64,000 bases of DNA from Trypethelium eluteriae (taxonomy: Eukaryota). Positions within the stretch are counted from its first letter, which is position 1. Each line of letters opens with the position of its first letter. The notes under the pieces are model-generated. The model searched no databases. It was not told the DNA's origin and saw only the letters and a program-made list of their open reading frames with translations. The stretch spans positions 62,001-126,000 of the forward strand of contig JAVECL010000007.1 of assembly GCA_051942245.1 (NCBI GenBank), written 5' to 3'. The position numbers and the translations under genes are program-made. Below are positions 3,879 to 12,212 of this stretch, piece after piece.

Positions 3879-6072
3879 TTAGCCCAGAAAAAATTCATTC
3901 GAACCAGCATGCATATCCTGATCATTGAGGGACGCCAAAGCATCCGTAAAATCAAGCGGAAAATTCAAGTCGGGATAGCTTCCTAGCACTGCATCGATAT
4001 TATCAAAGGCACCATCGTAGCTTGTGTTGCTAGCGGATGGAGTCAGTCGTGATGCATCTTGAGCTACATGTTCGCCCCCTGCGCTGCTGATCGGCTGTTG
4101 TCCGGAAAGCTCCGTGGGTGAGTACACGTGGAATGGGTCTTTTGGATCTTGTTCCAAAGAGTTCTTCTCACTGCCGCTACGAGGTAGGTTATTCCGAGAC
4201 GGTGGGCTGTCATATGAAGCTTGCGATCGATGCTTAGATCGCTCAGCCGCTCTGCCTTGACCGTTGGCTCGAGGTCTATCGTCGAGAGCTCGGGACACTT
4301 TGTTTGCTCTGCTTATGACCGCTCTGCCCATCTCTGCCACGACGCCAGCCGAGTGCCATACTGTCTTGAGTCCTTCTAGAATATTGCAACATTTCTCCAG
4401 ATCCTCTTTCGCACGAGCTTGATGCATACTTAGTTTGCTCTGGCGGTATTGGCGATACGCAAAACTCATGGATAGGGCCACTGACCAGTCTGGAACGGGA
4501 AGCGGTGGCAGATTTCGAGCCGATGGACTTTCCATAATTGAAATAACCCGGACAGCAGAAAGGCTTGCTCGTACGTAGGATGGTGTCGAACGTGCCGGTC
4601 TCTCCATGGATCTGGATCTACACGATAGCATGGCGACGCAATGATATAGCAGCTCTAGAAGCGCTGCCATGAAATCAGCATCAGGTAAGATAGAACTCGT
4701 GCGGATACAGACTCACTTATGACCTCATTCTGAAGTTTATCACCACCAGTTCCAACGATGTCCTCAAAGGCAGGAAAATCCTCTTCCCAACCAGTGGATG
4801 CAGGGTCGGCAGAAGGTCGATAGAAAGATATGATGTTCTCCAAGTATGTGCACAGTCGAAGCCACATTCCAAAAGCAGTATGACGGTATTTCTTCATATC
4901 CATCATGTTAGTGAGACCGATGTCTGCCTCCTTGAGTTGCGTGGGCCTGGCATTGATGGATCCATTTGTCAGCTTGTCCAAACCCCACAGGCACCAGAAT
5001 AGCTTTTCCAACCGCTCATCACGAAGCTCTTTCCTAGCTCGACCTAGGTGGAGCCCAATGGAGTGCGCATACTGGATGGCTTTGGCAAGGTGAACCGAAT
5101 TGTCGTCATGCTCAGCAGAAACCTCACGGTTGATGGATAGTAAAGCATTAACTTGGATGAGTACCAATTTATCTGTCTCTAGATGTGCATTCAGTGACGC
5201 AACAATGCTCGAATATAATCGGTCTGCAAACTGCTTGGGTTCTAGTAATATGGCTGCCTCGTCCTGGAGGCGGAGATGGGGTCGTGCAGTATTATGCCGA
5301 GAAGCTACCAAGCACACGGCTTGTAGGAGCGTTTTCGAAACGGTCCCATCCTTATAGGCTGCCTTGAAACCGTCTTTGTGAATGATAGGGAGGAGCGGTT
5401 GGACACTGGAGAAATAAATGTCCATAAGTGCCTCTGTATCTGCGTCTGAAGGCAGGACCGAGACCCCCAAAGCCTGGAGGTAGCTTTCGAGAGCAATTTG
5501 AATGCGCAACTTCCGTTGTTGATCTATACCTCCAGACACAATGATATTTGGGATTCCCTGCGTCTCGGTCTGTTTGACAGTCTCTGGCTCTTTCTCCTTG
5601 GCCGAAATGAAATATCCAATCTGGCTTTGACTTGGACCGCCAATTCCCCGCTCCTGCATACGACCTCGCAGCACAGACTCCGGAGTCATGTCGCCAATGA
5701 ATCTCGAAGGATTCTCTGTTGATTTGTCTCCATCAGAGTGTGGCTCCAGCATTCCCTCAATAGTGACCTTTTCATAACCATTTTCTTCATTTTGAGCGGC
5801 TTGGGGTTCTAAAACATTCGCGAGTCCTCCATTGTTGACTTCGACTTTATCTCTAGCTTTGCTGCCTACGGGTGAGGCTGTTGAGGTATTTGTCTCTTCT
5901 TCGGTAAAGGTATGATCGCATCGCTTCTGACAAAAAATTTCAGCACAACTACTCAATACGACGTGAGAATAAAGCTCACTCTGCGCTTCTTGCACGATTC
6001 GCAAGCTCTGTAGACTCGTTTCCGCTTCCGAAAAAGCTCATTGTCCGCAGCAAATGTGATCATGGTCGACAT
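3879..6072 (-). CDS. Fungal-specific transcription factor (Fungal_trans/middle homology domain) with a truncated Zn2Cys6 N-terminus. Exons 6072-5980, 5926-4717, 4663-3879
   Basis: MSTMITFAADNELFRKRKRVYRACESCKKRR|KRCDH, followed by YFSSVQPLLPIIH, AHSIGLH and KLFWCLWGLDK motifs typical of the fungal TF domain. Confidence 0.88.
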
Positions 6073-6483
6073 GGCGAGGTCATGCTCCAGGAGGACGAAG
6101 ATTGTGCCAGATGAAGAAAAATCGACAATTGACCGCTCTCATTGATTCTCCGAAATCGCGACTGATGGTTCGGCGTTCTACAAAAGCTCCAATTGTTATA
6201 GGCTTCGAGTTTTCAATATGAACCTGTCGAGCCTGTGCCCAACAATGAAGAGAAACGGGATACCTCCTCGACGGTACTTTACCTGGAGGTACCCCACGCG
6301 AAATCGGCTACCTTTCCCCTCTTCTTCCCAATTGTTCGAGCCAACTCTTATTATACCGCAAGCGCATGCCTACTCAGGCTCGCCATGTAGTACTTTCAGC
6401 TCTCCAGACTCCTCAGAAGTCCACGATTGTTGTGGCTTTGATCGTCGTGAGGGCAAATCTCACCGTGTTTTGAGGAAGGTTTC

Positions 6484-6585
6484 GCTATATTCATACAGAA
6501 AGTGACCTCTCCGTACACCCAGCTAGGTTAGTGGCCTTTAGCGCATTGACTCAGCAAGATTTCGCCCGGCCCAACCTCTACTCAA
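6484..6585 (+). repeat. Left arm of a degenerate inverted repeat (partner at 9258-9358)
   Basis: Hand alignment to the reverse complement of 9258-9358: 68 of 102 columns identical, 1 gap, 21 of 33 mismatches are transitions. Exact blocks CTAGGTTAGT and TTGACTCAGCAA. Confidence 0.8.
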
Positions 6586-6781
6586 CTCTGCTCTGTCCTG
6601 CCCCCTACTGCTCATGCTCAGCTCAGTTGTGCTCAATCTTAATCAGCCGTGCTCCCGACCTGCTTAGACTGCCTCCGTGTCCCGATTCTGGGATCCCTTC
6701 GCCTTTAAGCCGAAATGTTGTCAAGTCTATATTACTATATTAGGGGTCCTGAAACTGGAAGCCCCAACACTGGTTGAAGCC

Positions 6782-7537
6782 ATGAATTATATCGCAAGCT
6801 CCTTGGCCTGCCATCCAAGCCTCTCTGGAGGTTTGGCGTTCCCATAGGAGGTGTCCCGGTCACGTGCACCAGAGCGCCCGCGACCTGTCCTTGCTATCTC
6901 AAGCGGTGCCCGTGCAGCCTTCAATGGTGTCGTCACGAAACTGTGAGGTCCAGCGAGCTATGCTATCAAGTAAATAGTGACGAATGTAGCATCACTACTA
7001 TTCTGACATTCCATGAGCTATCTCCGTAGGCTCAAGCTTACTTGAGGTCTATCGCCAGAGAACAAGCTTGTGGAAAATGTTATTCGTGGCGCGCGTTATC
7101 TTAACGCCTGAGCGAGCATACCTCATGACAATCCCTTTAACACTTCCTTCAATTTTCTAAACTTGTTGCTATCCTCTCACTGAAATATCAAGGTGATTGA
7201 TGCTGAGTGCCGTGACAAGATCAAAGACGTCTCTCACTTCTCGGACGACGAACCAGTGTTGACTGCAGATGACTGGGAGAAACTGGCAGCAGATGTCGGT
7301 GCTACAGTCAGTGACGCTGAAATTGGCTGGGACGATGCCATCAGCGATGATGGAGACTGGGACAGTGACAAGCAAGACGAGGGATGCGATAAGGGGGACA
7401 TAGAGTGGAATGACGAGCAGGCTGAATGTCTGTATTCCCGCGCAACCTTGCAGACTTGTTTTCAGGGCAAGCGAACTACTTGGACTCCTGTGCGAGGAAC
7501 TCCATGTGATATCTATCTCCTTAGTCATGTCAGTTAG
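6782..7537 (+). pseudogene. Possible decayed reading frame, origin unknown (transposase relic or captured gene)
   Basis: ATG 6782 is in frame with the open acidic ORF 7193-7537. The 5' part carries 7 stops (5 TGA, 1 TAG, 1 TAA), roughly the random expectation, so support is weak. Confidence 0.35.
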
Positions 7538-7706
7538 GTATTCGATTAAATCAAGCGGTAGATATGGAATAGAAAGCACTGTGAGTGCAATAGAGAATAT
7601 CGTCTACTCGTGAGGACTGCCTACCGTAACTTAGTTTCAACCTCAGCCACTAAAGTATCCTGTCTACAGTGTCCCTCCACAAGGCTCTGTAAATCTGCTA
7701 GTCCAA

Positions 7707-9124
7707 CTAGCCTACACTCTCTTCAACTTTATTCCCAGGATGGCGAGTGCCCTTGTCTTTGACCTTTTTCTGCTTCTTCTCCGGGGGCGGATATGCCTTC
7801 AAAGTGAGCTCCTGCCATTCATTCGACGCTTGATACGCCGCCTGAATGGGCGCCATGAGGCTAACGAGGGCGGCTGACACTGCAGGCTTGAGCAGTTGTG
7901 GCGTTAACTAAGGTGCAATTAGCTTCCAGTAGATCCTTGTAGCGGTGTTGAATTAATACGTACGATATCGTTCTTGTAATCATCATGCATCTGCTTGATA
8001 TCGGTGTATAGAAGTGGATCCAACCCGTCTCTGCGTTCGACACGGAATTCTTTGCAGCCCTTGAGAGCGGCGGCCGGTAGTAGAATGGACTCGACTAATG
8101 CCAAGATCCCGTTCTCGTCGGTAACTCGAGGAACCGCCACAGCTTTGCCAATCTTCTTAGAGATGACTTCGGGAGGGTCGAGGAGGTCGATCTTGCTATC
8201 TGATGATTTCAAGTGAGCAGCCGTATCTTGGCAACGAACGGATCCGAATCATGGCACAAAACAGATAAGGGATAATATTACCGGCGTCACTGGAACTCAT
8301 TTTTCCTCCTTTCAAGCCGGCAACCATGGGACTAACGAGATGCGCACGCTAAAGATCCCATAAGTATGTGATGGTTTCCTGAGTTGCTGCAATCTCACCT
8401 GCCGGTATCCAAGTTTAGGTAACCATTCCTTTGCGGCCACGAATAGCTTCCTCTGGTCGACACCTACCTCGGATTAGCAGGATACAATCAAACTTAATGT
8501 TGAGAATACCTCCTAGCTGAGCGTCGACATGAAGATGTTCTTCATCGAGCACTTGAAGGATAGGGTAAAGAAGGCCGCTCAAGGGCGAATTTCCCGATTG
8601 TTTGACAATTTCTGCCCCAGCCCTTTTTGCGTCATGTTCTGATACCAAAGATGACAACCGATACACATCCATCACATATTCGGGACTCTTCTGATATGAA
8701 GTTCCGAGAACGAACTGGAGCTTTTCCGTGGGAACGCCCACAGACTCTAATATTGCCGTTATAATCAGTCGATACCAGACGGCCCGACTCTCAACAAGCT
8801 CAATTGGCGCTTTGAGATTGTCGAGGAAGCCGTGAATGTCGGCCAGTAAGCAGACAACGTCACAACCCGCCGCCAAAAGCTGTGCGATTTTCAAGGCTGG
8901 GACGTAGTAGCCAGTATGAGGTCGACCGGTCGTCGCGGTACCTGCGTGGTAAATAGGAGAAGACGTCAGCGTGTCCGAAGCAGATCGAAACAGAAGGAGG
9001 TGTTACCCCAGTACACTCTTGGGTTCCGTCCTTCGGCCAATATACTCTCAATCAACTCGGGGTCCAAAATTTCGGCAAGATTTTCGCGAATCATTGAAAA
9101 CCGCTCTTTCGCGTCGAGATCCAT
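7707..9124 (-). CDS. TYS1: Tyrosyl-tRNA synthetase, eukaryotic cytosolic type, 372 aa. Exons 9124-9007, 8941-8510, 8463-8399, 8348-8282, 8199-7964, 7907-7707
   Basis: [14 protein letters not shown] (HIGH-equivalent), [33 protein letters not shown] and KMSSS motifs. Five GT-AG introns give an uninterrupted 1119-nt CDS. Confidence 0.96.
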
Positions 9125-9206
9125 GGTGAGAAGATAGCATTTGAGAGAAGAAGCCAGAGGTAGAATGCTCAACCCGAGGAGTGAAAGATTAATTGATTTT
9201 TGGCGT

Positions 9207-9296
9207 TGACTCACATATCATGGAAACGGTGCAGAGTGAGCCGAGATTGAGCCGAGATTGAGCCGAGATTGAGTCGGACGTGAATTTGCTGAGTCA
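9207..9296. promoter_or_regulatory. Two Gcn4/CpcA (cross-pathway control) type sites upstream of TyrRS
   Basis: TGACTCA at 9207-9213 and TGAGTCA at 9290-9296, within ~170 bp of the TyrRS ATG. aaRS genes are established Gcn4/Cpc targets in fungi. Confidence 0.6.
9237..9269 (+). repeat. 11-bp tandem repeat (TGAGCCGAGAT)x3, followed by a degenerate fourth copy
   Basis: Perfect copies at 9237, 9248 and 9259, then TGAGTCGGAC at 9270. Confidence 0.95.
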
Positions 9297-9358
9297 AGGG
9301 GCCAATTCGACTAACCTAGTTCGGCGTATAGAAAGATTGCTTTTTATGCTTTCATAGC
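9258..9358 (-). repeat. Right arm of the degenerate inverted repeat (partner at 6484-6585)
   Basis: Reverse complement GCTATGAAAGCATAAAAAGCAATCTTTCTATACGCCGAACTAGGTTAGTCG...TTGACTCAGCAA...CTCAA aligns to 6484-6585. Confidence 0.8.
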
Positions 9359-9459
9359 ACTGCCAGCCATAGATCTCCGGTACCGGAATAGAAGCACTAA
9401 ACACTCGACGTATTGTCTAAAGGTTCTAAGCTTCCGTTACGGCGATCTCCACACTAAAT

Positions 9460-9729
9460 TTGACTAATAATCTGAGCTTTAGAAAGATGACGGGCGAATA
9501 GTATAGTTAGGGGGCTTTTAATATTAATCTTATTTAAACTTCTATAGGTGAAGAGAGAGTTCGATACGAACTACGGTCACTTGCTCAGTGTCGGGAGCCC
9601 CAAAATCAGGCGCCGCTAGTTCAGGCTGCACCCATCCTGGCTCACTGCGACTCAGGGCGTGCTCAAGCTTGCTCAGTTTGGCTCGCTGACGGCTCGGGCT
9701 GCTGGCTAAGCGCTCACGTTACACACCTG
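9460..9729 (-). mobile_element. Probable terminal fragment of a hAT-like DNA transposon, interior facing left
   Basis: Minus strand reads CAGGTGTGTAACGTGAGCG from 9729, followed by many TGAGC/CGAGC subterminal-type motifs (9580-9720) and an AT/TpA-rich patch at ~9500-9545 suggestive of RIP. Confidence 0.5.
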
Positions 9730-9965
9730 AGGGAGGTATCTTAACTCACGCCCGAACGCAGAAATGGACTTTGTATGAAGTCACTTTGTCCTTGAATACA
9801 TTCCGCCATTTCAGGCCAGAAGTCATGGATGAACGAAAATGAAATGCGAAAACACTGTTTATGGTTGGGCACACTTTGCTCATACGACACTACGCTGTTT
9901 CTCATTATTGAAGTATGCAACAAGAAGCCAACCCAAACCTTAATCCCATCAACGCCATAACGCCT

Positions 9966-12212
9966 TCAATTAATCTCAACGCCAGAATCATCAGTATCTG
10001 AGCCTATCTTCTCAACAGCAGCATCTGACTCACCATCATCTGATGCTGGTTCGTCACCCTCCGACTGCGATTCCTGTGCACTAGGATTCGTGCTTGAACC
10101 GCTCAGCTGTCCCCTCCCGAACTGTCTCTTGACCAATTTAGCATACTTTCCTCCACGACCAATGAGCGCATCATGCGTGCCTCGCTCGATGATTTGCCCA
10201 TTATCAATGACTAGTATCAAATCTGCGTGCATGATAGTTGATAGACGATGTGCAACGATAAAGGTCGTGCGACCTGCGCATAGTTTCTTTAGGCCTTCTT
10301 GAATCTTCTTTTCAGTCTCAGTGTCTACTGCGCTCGTCGCTTCATCCAGAAGCACAATCTTCGGCTGTTTGATAATCGTCCTGGCGATCGAAATTCGTTG
10401 GAGTTCTCCACCGGAAAGTTTTACGCCTCCCTCCCCTACTTTTGACTGGTACCCCTTCGTAAAAGTCATAATTTTATCATGGATAGCGGCTGCACGACAG
10501 GCATCGTACACTTCTTCGTCCGTAGCATCAAGGCGGCCGTATCGTATGTTATCCATAATTGACTTATTGAACAATCTTGCGTTCTGAGGTACGATACCGA
10601 ATACATCTCGGAGGCTTTCTTGCGTGACATCTCGGAGGTCTTGGCCATCAATCGTGATACTTCCGTTGCAAACATCATAGGATCGAGGCAACAGCTTGAT
10701 TATTGTCGACTTGCCTCCGCCTGTCTCACCTACCAATGCGATTGTCTTCCCGGCTTCGGCTACAAAATTCAGGTCCTTGAGGATGACCTTGTCAGGTTTG
10801 TAGAAAAAATCTACTCCCAGAAATTCAACCTGTCCTTTCTTGAACTCTAATGGGTTTGCCACGGCTTTGTCGGTAACGGTTTGCTTCGTAAGCATCAAGT
10901 TGAAAAAGCGCTCCAGGTCTGTCAAATCGCGTCGTATATACTTGTAAGTCGAGGCGAGATATTTCAATGGTCGCTGGATTGATTGCCAATGCTGAACAAT
11001 GAGAATAAAGTCGCCCGCAGTATTGAGGCCGTTCAATATACGATGCACCACAAGCAAGCAAGCTGCAACGAGGCCAAGATGTGCGAACAAAGAGAGCATC
11101 TCATGATAGATTAAGAAGGTCAAGTCTGAGCGCTGGCCTGCTGCAATTTTCTCGTCTAGAGCTTTTTCAAAAAGATGCTGCTGGTGTATAGCTCCGTTGA
11201 ATGCTGTAATCGTCTTCCAATTTGCTATAGATTCATTCTTGACTTTTCCAAATCGCTTACGAGCAAGAGTCTCTGCTTTACGAGAACTTTTGATCCATCC
11301 GGAGCTCTCGTACGTAAGATATGCATAGGCGAGGGTTACACAAATAGCTAACAATGCCATGGGCCAGTCGAAGAGATAAAAGAAGTATGCATAGGCGATA
11401 ATGAGATCCAGAAGAATTGGTACCACATCGAAGGCAATCTGCTCACAGATACTGTACAGAGACGTTCCGCATTCCATGCGATTCAGTGTATCATAGGAAG
11501 CTTTGTCGTCGTGGTAATCCATTGAAAGAGCCATAACATGATCAAAAGCAGCTCTTTGGGAAGCTTTGTGGAAATGCAACTGAACCTGAATCTCCAGAGG
11601 TCTCAGGATAGCAGCTAGTATACCGCCCGGACCCAAAAATTTGTATAGAAGCCAGAGTCCGACCTCCTTGTAAGGTAGGGTGCTAAATTGAGCTTTGCCT
11701 GATCGCACGAACTCAGAGGATGGAGCGGAACTATCTTGACCTGACGAACGTGCTGCATCCCACAAGAGATTCATGGCCTTGCTTTCTTGATGATGTACAA
11801 GGACGTTGAGTACACTGTCAGAGAGTTTCTGGAGGATCATAGCCACCATGGCAAACTGAAGAACCATGTCTCTTGATGGCCATACGTCCGGGATAAGGTC
11901 AAAGAAACTCTTGAAGTATCTGAACCATCCTAAATCTTTCAGACGTTGTTTTCGCTGGCTCTTCAGATTCTTGACATCCTCATCAACGTCCTCATCGTCG
12001 AAGTCCGAATCTGCCTCGGAATCAAATTCATCATCCTCATCACCCCTTTGTTGCGAATCATTTGCCGTTGAAGATGCATTGACATCTTCGGTCCTTGGTA
12101 GAACCTTATACAATCGGAGGAGGCTGGCTCTGGATGTGGAATAATAGTGGGAGGGAAGGAGGAAAACAAAAGCACTGGTAAAGGCAACAGTGATCAAGAG
12201 TATGGCCGCCAT
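9966..12212 (-). CDS. Half-size ABC transporter, ABCB/HMT1-ATM1-like, intronless, 748 aa
   Basis: TMD with AAFDHVMALSMDYHDDK, Walker A GETGGGKST, signature LSGGELQR, Walker B VLLDEATSAVD and AHRLSTI. Confidence 0.93.
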   Translation of the reverse strand: MAAILLITVAFTSAFVFLLPSHYYSTSRASLLRLYKVLPRTEDVNASSTANDSQQRGDEDDEFDSEADSDFDDEDVDEDVKNLKSQRKQRLKDLGWFRYFKSFFDLIPDVWPSRDMVLQFAMVAMILQKLSDSVLNVLVHHQESKAMNLLWDAARSSGQDSSAPSSEFVRSGKAQFSTLPYKEVGLWLLYKFLGPGGILAAILRPLEIQVQLHFHKASQRAAFDHVMALSMDYHDDKASYDTLNRMECGTSLYSICEQIAFDVVPILLDLIIAYAYFFYLFDWPMALLAICVTLAYAYLTYESSGWIKSSRKAETLARKRFGKVKNESIANWKTITAFNGAIHQQHLFEKALDEKIAAGQRSDLTFLIYHEMLSLFAHLGLVAACLLVVHRILNGLNTAGDFILIVQHWQSIQRPLKYLASTYKYIRRDLTDLERFFNLMLTKQTVTDKAVANPLEFKKGQVEFLGVDFFYKPDKVILKDLNFVAEAGKTIALVGETGGGKSTIIKLLPRSYDVCNGSITIDGQDLRDVTQESLRDVFGIVPQNARLFNKSIMDNIRYGRLDATDEEVYDACRAAAIHDKIMTFTKGYQSKVGEGGVKLSGGELQRISIARTIIKQPKIVLLDEATSAVDTETEKKIQEGLKKLCAGRTTFIVAHRLSTIMHADLILVIDNGQIIERGTHDALIGRGGKYAKLVKRQFGRGQLSGSSTNPSAQESQSEGDEPASDDGESDAAVEKIGSDTDDSGVEIN

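Follow-up and report, generated by a model that had tools for sequence, protein, structure and literature searches.

Genes captured by DNA transposons are usually fragments or dead copies. In Pack-MULE-type elements, long terminal inverted repeats (TIRs; ~100 bp or more) surround host DNA, no transposase is encoded, and the cargo, usually gene fragments, may come from more than one gene; target-site duplications of 9 to 11 bp flank these elements. In composite units, two inverted copies of a short, transposase-less element bracket the cargo and are moved together with it by a transposase acting in trans. In the Dothideomycetes, a histone H3 gene of Pseudocercospora fijiensis and related species has undergone transduplication through a hAT DNA transposon (Dhillon et al. 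2019, PMC6710886). Here, we describe a 2.9-kb block (positions 6484 to 9358) in a 64,000-nt stretch of DNA from the lichen-forming fungus Trypethelium eluteriae (contig JAVECL010000007.1; the whole stretch is called the window), in which a gene for a cytosolic tyrosyl-tRNA synthetase (TyrRS) is enclosed by two inverted repeats, the arms. The probable relocation of this essential gene belongs to a known kind of event. We conclude that the gene was probably relocated as DNA, with a transposon as the vehicle not proven and the repeat ends as likely but unproven handles of the relocation; overall, the case is suggestive rather than established.

The closest published case that we found is this histone H3 transduplication (PMC6710886), and the two cases are alike in the fungal class, in a complete housekeeping coding sequence bounded by inverted repeats, and in capture at the DNA level. 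There, tens to hundreds of copies lie in AT-rich blocks and have been made inactive through RIP (repeat-induced point mutation) while the original persists. In contrast, TyrRS in the window is a single intact copy with normal GC content and without RIP, transposase, or target-site duplication, and no original TyrRS copy was detected in the Logan contigs of one DNA run (X1), which we compared with positions 6264 to 9563 at a likeness of at least 80% for all copy counts of the arms and of TyrRS. The locus shares with Pack-MULEs the long TIRs, the lack of a transposase, and host-derived cargo from two genes (an exon encoding an acidic protein, and TyrRS), but no duplication was seen and the cargo includes a whole essential gene with promoter and introns. 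The layout is also similar to that of a composite of two miniature inverted-repeat elements, although neither arm is demonstrable as a complete element. The enzyme has the same PF00579 class I W/Y synthetase core as the ascomycete cytosolic TyrRS of the TYS1 type, with 80 to 90% identity to TYS1-named proteins in the core exon; the protein itself is no different from these, while its genomic position and its placement in the tree are unusual.

Global alignment reproduced exactly the pairing described in an earlier note on this DNA, in which positions 6484 to 6585 match the reverse complement of 9258 to 9358. Sixty-eight of the 102 columns were identical, with 1 gap and 33 mismatches (21/33 transitions), and the alignment contained the exact blocks CTAGGTTAGT and TTGACTCAGCAA. 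Gapped alignment extended the similarity inward to 128 nt (6484 to 6611 against 9358 to 9231), the gaps being due to an 11-nt tandem repeat in the right arm, whose counterpart in the left arm is one diverged unit. Over their length the arms were 65 to 68% identical, with 33/51 identical positions (65%) in the outer part and 54/79 in the inner part (~77 nt), and at both outer ends the similarity begins precisely at GCTAT and stops there. A repeat finder split the pair into 6538-6585/9258-9305 (48 nt, 73%) and 6499-6532/9310-9343 (34 nt, 74%), while blastn of the window against itself matched 6499-6593 to 9343-9249 (96 nt, 70.8%, E = 4.6e-9) and showed no further arm copy in the 64-kb window, the next-best self-match having an E of 0.17. 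The arm pair also passed a comparison with shuffled sequence, as had been proposed in the earlier note. Its local score of 37 was reached by none of 300 dinucleotide-preserving shuffles of the two 600-nt regions (mean 11.3, SD 1.2, maximum 17) and by none of 376 random pairs of real 600-nt regions from the window (maximum 19).

At its outer end, the left arm consists of a ~50-nt low-copy repeat, which occurs at six or more loci of the genome. Besides the contig of the locus itself, five X1 contigs, each at single-copy depth, matched only this module (6483 to 6521, 6484 to 6534, 6487 to 6531, 6499 to 6534, and 6499 to 6534), with 4, 8, 5, 3, and 5 differences, respectively (84 to 92% identity, 88% pooled). 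Outside 6483/6484, the flanks of these copies were unlike the window and unlike each other, and since copies start at 6483, 6484, and 6487 with unrelated flanks, 6484 is a true element end. Behind 6534 the other copies likewise continue unlike the window (one loose-end consensus, from three records), precisely where the two arms have a further ~77 nt of inner sequence in common, including TTGACTCAGCAA. This inner sequence, common to both arms and not seen in the other copies, makes the arms structurally a pair. None of the five contigs carried a second inverted copy of the module at ≥80%, and no contig besides that of the locus matched the right arm at ≥80%. The earlier note had allowed that the arms could be independent insertions of a common short repeat, and this holds in part, given that the outer 50 nt of the left arm is dispersed and nearer to five other loci than to the right arm. 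By our own arithmetic, the chance of two among ~7 family copies in ~36 Mb falling within 3 kb is ~0.003. One 35-kb X1 contig covers 6264 to 9563 unbroken, and the arrangement is therefore not an assembly join.

Between the arms, a GT-AG exon model of TyrRS (9124 to 9007, 8941 to 8510, 8463 to 8399, 8348 to 8282, 8199 to 7964, and 7907 to 7707, stop included) gave a letter-for-letter match to a 372-aa protein recorded as "tyrosyl-tRNA synthetase [Viridothelium virens]" (P0002), which bears out the complete six-exon gene that the earlier note had placed there. The frame is open across all exons at full length, exon 2 matches PF00579 (E = 2e-23), and the sequence contains a KMSSS stretch, which we take to be a variant of the class I synthetase signature. 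P0002 was the only V. virens entry among the 120 listed of 1142 matches, and no second TyrRS at ≥80% DNA identity was found in the X1 contigs, a more diverged copy still being possible. The enclosed gene is the family's ordinary cytosolic TyrRS, a probably relocated housekeeping gene and not the additional captured aminoacyl-tRNA synthetase suspected in the earlier note. Its introns have been kept, so any move took place at the DNA level. The features of the block and its neighbors are collected in Table 1.

Table 1. Features within and beside the inverted-repeat-bounded block, with window coordinates
Feature	Position	Strand	Remarks
Zn2Cys6 / Fungal_trans transcription factor, three exons (left neighbor)	3882..6072	-	PF04082
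Left arm of inverted repeat	6484..6611	+	412-539 nt upstream of transcription factor ATG (6072, minus strand)
Outer ~50-nt module of left arm	6484..6534	+	low-copy dispersed repeat, sharp outer boundary
TGACTCA core	6547..6553	.	within exact block TTGACTCAGCAA, left arm
117-codon unannotated open reading frame	7184..7537	+	first 76 codons (7190-7417) read as conserved acidic-protein exon
Cytosolic tyrosyl-tRNA synthetase (TyrRS), six exons	7707..9124	-	spliced product = P0002
Right arm of inverted repeat	9231..9358	-	107-234 nt upstream of TyrRS ATG
11-nt tandem repeat AGATTGAGCCG x3.7	9233..9273	.	inner end of right arm; score 75
TGAGTCA core	9290..9296	.	right arm; lies upstream of TyrRS, like a second TGASTCA (9207)
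Intronless ABC-B half-transporter, 748 codons (right neighbor)	9969..12212	-	PF00664 + PF00005

The second feature of the block is an open reading frame (ORF) that lies tail to tail with TyrRS. Searching 1.84 billion representatives for its relatives gave three matches, the best of which (P0348, a 71-aa unnamed protein) was identical at 50/68 and similar at 63/68 positions to the translation of 7193 to 7396. Another match (P0349, 115 aa) was identical at 39/76 positions, and its first 42 residues are without counterpart in the window. The conserved part is preceded, three codons upstream, by a stop, and no frame is open in the 580 nt from there to the left arm. We read this ORF as what is left of an acidic-protein gene, namely its last exon, the part upstream being missing or decayed. 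Where the earlier note had seen a decayed ORF there is instead a conserved exon, and not a transposase relic. The ORF had no Pfam family, and two scans for relatives in metagenome contigs gave 176 and 597 pattern matches, of which none was confirmed. In V. virens, the transcription factor and TyrRS have consecutive accessions, and so no gene is annotated at this place.

Gene order in relatives was read by proxy from the locus tags and accession numbers of the orthologues of the neighboring genes, consecutive numbers being taken as adjacency. The V. virens accessions (transcription factor KAF2236718.1, TyrRS KAF2236719.1, and the ATP-binding cassette [ABC] transporter KAF2236720.1) follow the physical order in the window, which calibrates the proxy. 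In Bathelium mastoideum, the transcription factor and ABC orthologues (69% and 67% identical to those in the window, respectively) are adjacent in one assembly (M1822_001102/M1822_001103, KAI9688745.1/46.1, contig 885312) and in the other (M1821_009521/M1821_009522, KAI9661194.1/95.1, contig 1347222), while its TyrRS, M1822_008459, placed in one group with the V. virens enzyme by the tree described below, is located on another contig (1547196). The earlier note had proposed to look for an empty site between these neighbors, and by locus tags it is there in both Bathelium assemblies. What lies between the arms is exactly the pair of features that the Bathelium annotation lacks at this site. To judge from these gene orders, the position of TyrRS relative to the gene pair has changed in one lineage, either Viridothelium or Bathelium. 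The sequence beyond the arms amounts to 412 nt upstream of the transcription factor plus 610 nt downstream of the ABC gene, so that an ordinary spacer of ~1 kb is left without the block. In Trypethelium subeluteriae, the orthologues (90% identical for the transcription factor and 84% for the ABC transporter) carry consecutive tags on one contig (Q9165_001068/Q9165_001069), and in three further relatives the two genes are probably linked (contigs of 58809, 65539, and 145722 nt).

RIP or deamination of methylated cytosines, proposed in the earlier note to account for the decay of the arms, left no mark on the composition of the locus. The usual RIP thresholds are a TpA/ApT ratio above 0.89 and a (CpA+TpG)/(ApC+GpT) ratio below 1.03. 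The block had values of 0.76 and 1.23, respectively, and a GC content of 0.49, close to those of the whole window (0.65, 1.29, and 0.49). Over the same 3.3 kb, the window and the X1 contig differed at eight positions, six transitions and two transversions; the share of transitions between the arms is no higher than this share at the locus, which argues for an ordinary mutation spectrum. We conclude that RIP played no visible part at the block.

Our tentative proposal is that the block came to this place by insertion as DNA and that the arms were its ends, i.e., that it is a repeat-bounded mobilized unit. Each arm is a diverged copy, inverted relative to the other, of a unit of ~128 bp with an outer ~50 bp that belongs to the low-copy dispersed repeat, and between the arms lie a relic acidic-protein exon and the tail-to-tail TyrRS with its promoter and five introns. 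The mobilized block, which may be a TIR-bounded element lacking a transposase or else two repeat copies forming a composite, would have entered the spacer between the transcription factor and ABC genes in the Viridothelium lineage, moved by a transposase encoded elsewhere, and TyrRS would later have disappeared from its old locus. We thus infer a gain here rather than a loss in Bathelium, with the arms as the ends of the moved DNA and a transposase as the mover. Insertion is favored because the arms are paired and have sharp ends at the terminus of the family, because two copies would so rarely fall this close by chance, and because of the gap in Bathelium, the ordinary spacer, and the introns. 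Of the DNA-level mobilization put forward in the earlier note, the repeat with its sharp ends, the kept introns, and the empty site in Bathelium stand, whereas RIP, an extra gene copy, and a decayed vehicle are not supported.

Several observations weigh against this proposal. The left module is far closer to the outside copies (84 to 92%) than to the right arm (65%), a difference not expected of two ends that started out the same when the block was inserted and have since decayed neutrally, and with five solitary copies outside, the family does not look like ordinary paired-TIR elements. Of the marks of a transposon, the inverted repeats are present at both ends (128 nt per side, common ends GCTAT). 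No target-site duplication of 2 to 11 bp was found within 12 nt of either end; likewise, no flanking direct repeat of ≥5 nt (exact) or ≥8 nt (with one mismatch) was found within 12 nt of 6484/9358, the only such matches falling inside the arms. A short duplication could have been erased by decay. Neither a transposase nor another transposon protein was found between the arms by Pfam searches of interior ORFs of ≥120 aa, and membership in any transposon superfamily fails on these two points. The decayed vehicle of the earlier note is not borne out, given the lack of a target-site duplication and the acidic-protein exon where a transposase relic might have been. Bathelium alone fits one gain here or one loss there equally well, and the question is not settled by it. 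No TyrRS was found among T. subeluteriae proteins of ≥343 aa, and the T. eluteriae record, in which the transcription factor and ABC genes share one contig of 132879 nt, is also without a TyrRS model of ≥343 aa. An unannotated TyrRS between the neighbors is therefore possible in either Trypethelium record. Together with the identity of the T. eluteriae proteins to those of the window, this led us to downgrade the two species as independent empty sites. Bogoriella has its transcription factor gene and its ABC gene on separate contigs (180705 and 210807).

Chance similarity of two intergenic stretches might be suspected, as 17 short inverted pairs (14 to 25 nt) were listed in the same 5 kb, but it is refuted by the score of the arm pair against both shuffled and real sequence and by the blastn E value, and we regard it as negligible. 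A more serious alternative, though in our judgment a rather unlikely one, is that TyrRS is ancestral between the transcription factor and ABC genes and was moved in the Bathelium lineage, the arms being mere bystanders, i.e., either old copies of the dispersed repeat or promoter-proximal sequence that was duplicated locally in inverted orientation. Bathelium is the only solid comparison, and by parsimony a single loss in it does as well as a single gain at this locus; both arms lie in the 5' regions of genes, a target-site duplication was not found, and a left arm nearer to five other loci than to its partner is what copies of different age would give. However, two of ~7 copies within 3 kb are improbable as bystanders, the inner ~77 nt is common to the arms while the other copies are unlike the window behind 6534, and the arms enclose exactly both features absent from the Bathelium annotation; taken at face value, the consecutive transcription factor and ABC tags of T. 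subeluteriae also speak against an ancestral TyrRS at this place.

Less probable still, we consider that a ~2.9-kb segment of the old TyrRS locus, comprising TyrRS and the 3' exon of its neighbor, was copied into a break in the transcription factor-ABC spacer by double-strand-break repair or ectopic recombination, without any transposase, the repeat copies having provided homology or being incidental and the old copy having been lost later. This would agree with the empty site in Bathelium and with the lack of a target-site duplication and of a transposase between the arms, and the block, made up of the last acidic exon and the whole of TyrRS, resembles a random cut of a tail-to-tail pair; moreover, an X1 contig with two short exact matches to the block, described below, may be the diverged parent locus. 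Those matches are weak, however, given the number of exact 18-mers expected by chance. Priming from one repeat would, as we reason, leave one hybrid and not two inverted copies with matching ends, and the ends of the arms coincide with the family's own terminus.

Dothideomycetes chromosomes are known for scrambled gene order, and the mobilized block, if real, would provide a concrete and datable single-gene relocation in this class. The sole working copy of an essential translation gene would then lie within an inverted-repeat-bounded block at a non-ancestral site, and such elements would be able to relocate core genes and to hand them a repeat-derived promoter.

We also placed the enzyme in an LG+G4 tree of 56 TyrRS proteins, hand-picked from the 120 listed matches; 59 were fetched, and three (P0049, P0117, and P0118) were left out for aberrant ends or a deletion, the sampling being biased toward query-like proteins. 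The V. virens and Bathelium enzymes grouped together (SH-aLRT 85), their sister, with support 99, being Elaphomyces plus two unnamed proteins, and the whole group, which includes P0002, P0005, and P0008, was nested in a clade of Eurotiales and Onygenales. The other two sampled Dothideomycetes, Patellaria and Eremomyces, fell into a second TyrRS clade, alongside Sordariomycetes, and Aspergillus wentii had one gene in each clade. Grouping the four Dothideomycete sequences together was rejected by the approximately unbiased test (p = 0.00045, for a group chosen after the tree had been seen). The odd position may reflect transfer between classes or else a hidden paralogy; it is irrelevant to the local move, since the gene type in Bathelium is the same. 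A bolder idea, to which we give little credence, is that the TyrRS of the Trypetheliaceae is a xenologue of Eurotiomycete type, or a long-hidden paralogue, that replaced the native enzyme and is still the cargo of an inverted-repeat-bounded cassette. If this were true, fungi would have an essential aminoacyl-tRNA synthetase whose gene is mobile within genomes and perhaps also from class to class. The tree position raises the testable question of whether cytosolic synthetases have been exchanged between fungal classes.

TGASTCA heptamers, presumably Gcn4/CpcA-type sites of general amino-acid control, occur at distances of 83 and 166 nt upstream of the TyrRS ATG; one of the two belongs to the right arm and has a counterpart in the left arm. 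The window contains 12 such sites compared to ~8 expected by our arithmetic. If the heptamers are sites of general amino-acid control, the right arm supplies part of the regulation of TyrRS. The overlap of the TyrRS promoter with the right arm, as described in the earlier note, is plausible, the inner end of the arm lying about 106 to 107 nt upstream of the ATG. On the outward-reading strand of both arms (6484 to 6520, minus; 9322 to 9358, plus), a hairpin of 10 to 11 bp can form 8 to 9 nt from the terminus. The 51-nt left module had a z-score of -2.0; that of the right arm, -2.2, was obtained with all 128 nt and is therefore not specific to the hairpin. Read by eye, the pairing is preserved through one two-sided change and several one-sided ones, which, from two sequences, is no evidence of function. 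Helitrons, considered for these subterminal hairpins, start with 5'-TC, end with a hairpin and CTRR-3', and insert between A and T without inverted repeats. The ends here read ...ATAGC followed by A (right) or G (left), and not CTRR followed by T, and a Helitron was rejected.

In the X1 contigs, one of 36 kb carried exact matches of 18 and 19 nt to 7191-7208 (start of the acidic exon) and 8714-8732 (TyrRS exon 2), respectively, with 5.2 kb between the two on that contig. Chance alone should give about 3.5 exact 18-mers over the whole comparison; two patches on one contig are unexpected, and the contig may be a diverged second or parental locus.

Other candidates were dropped. A third partial arm copy at 9777 to 9798 (22 nt, 77%) was at chance level among the 17 listed inverted pairs, and a 12-nt direct repeat, TATAKTTAGGGG, seen by eye at ~6735 and 9505, is one of ~27 such pairs that by our arithmetic are expected by chance in 5 kb. 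With no Rfam family in 6000 to 10000 at E values up to 5 and no tRNA in the window, a tRNA-derived short interspersed element or a known small RNA was discarded as the source of the 50-nt module. A resistance-type synthetase copy in a biosynthetic gene cluster was also rejected, since the neighbors are housekeeping genes and no polyketide synthase, nonribosomal peptide synthetase, or terpene synthase was present among the 38 long ORFs scanned. Among the literature matches listed on TyrRS paralogues, transfer, and self-resistance, no title concerned duplication of a fungal cytosolic TyrRS, and the matches listed for the host organism held, in what they display, nothing on its repeats.

The rest of the window is housekeeping in character (a histone-fold factor, a TFIIB-like protein, ATR/MEC1, Med17, ISN1, and kinases), and its GC content is even, at 0.46 to 0.54 per 2 kb. 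The V. virens transcription factor KAF2236718.1 (P0347) matched 6072 to 5980, 5929 to 4715, and 4670 to 3882, with mismatches at exon junctions only. In the record named Trypethelium eluteriae, the transcription factor and ABC proteins (P0242 and P0353) were identical to those of the window over all common exon sequence, as were the V. virens proteins; at this locus, the T. eluteriae and V. virens records represent the same or nearly the same organism. For the ABC-B half-transporter, an exact 748-aa product is on record, of which no more than 356 aa are annotated in V. virens. Close relatives of this protein were found only in Trypetheliales (84, 68, 67, 67, 64, and 53% identity), followed by matches of ≤40%, with many bacterial-type ABC-B exporters among them, and the gene may be lineage specific or derived from bacteria.

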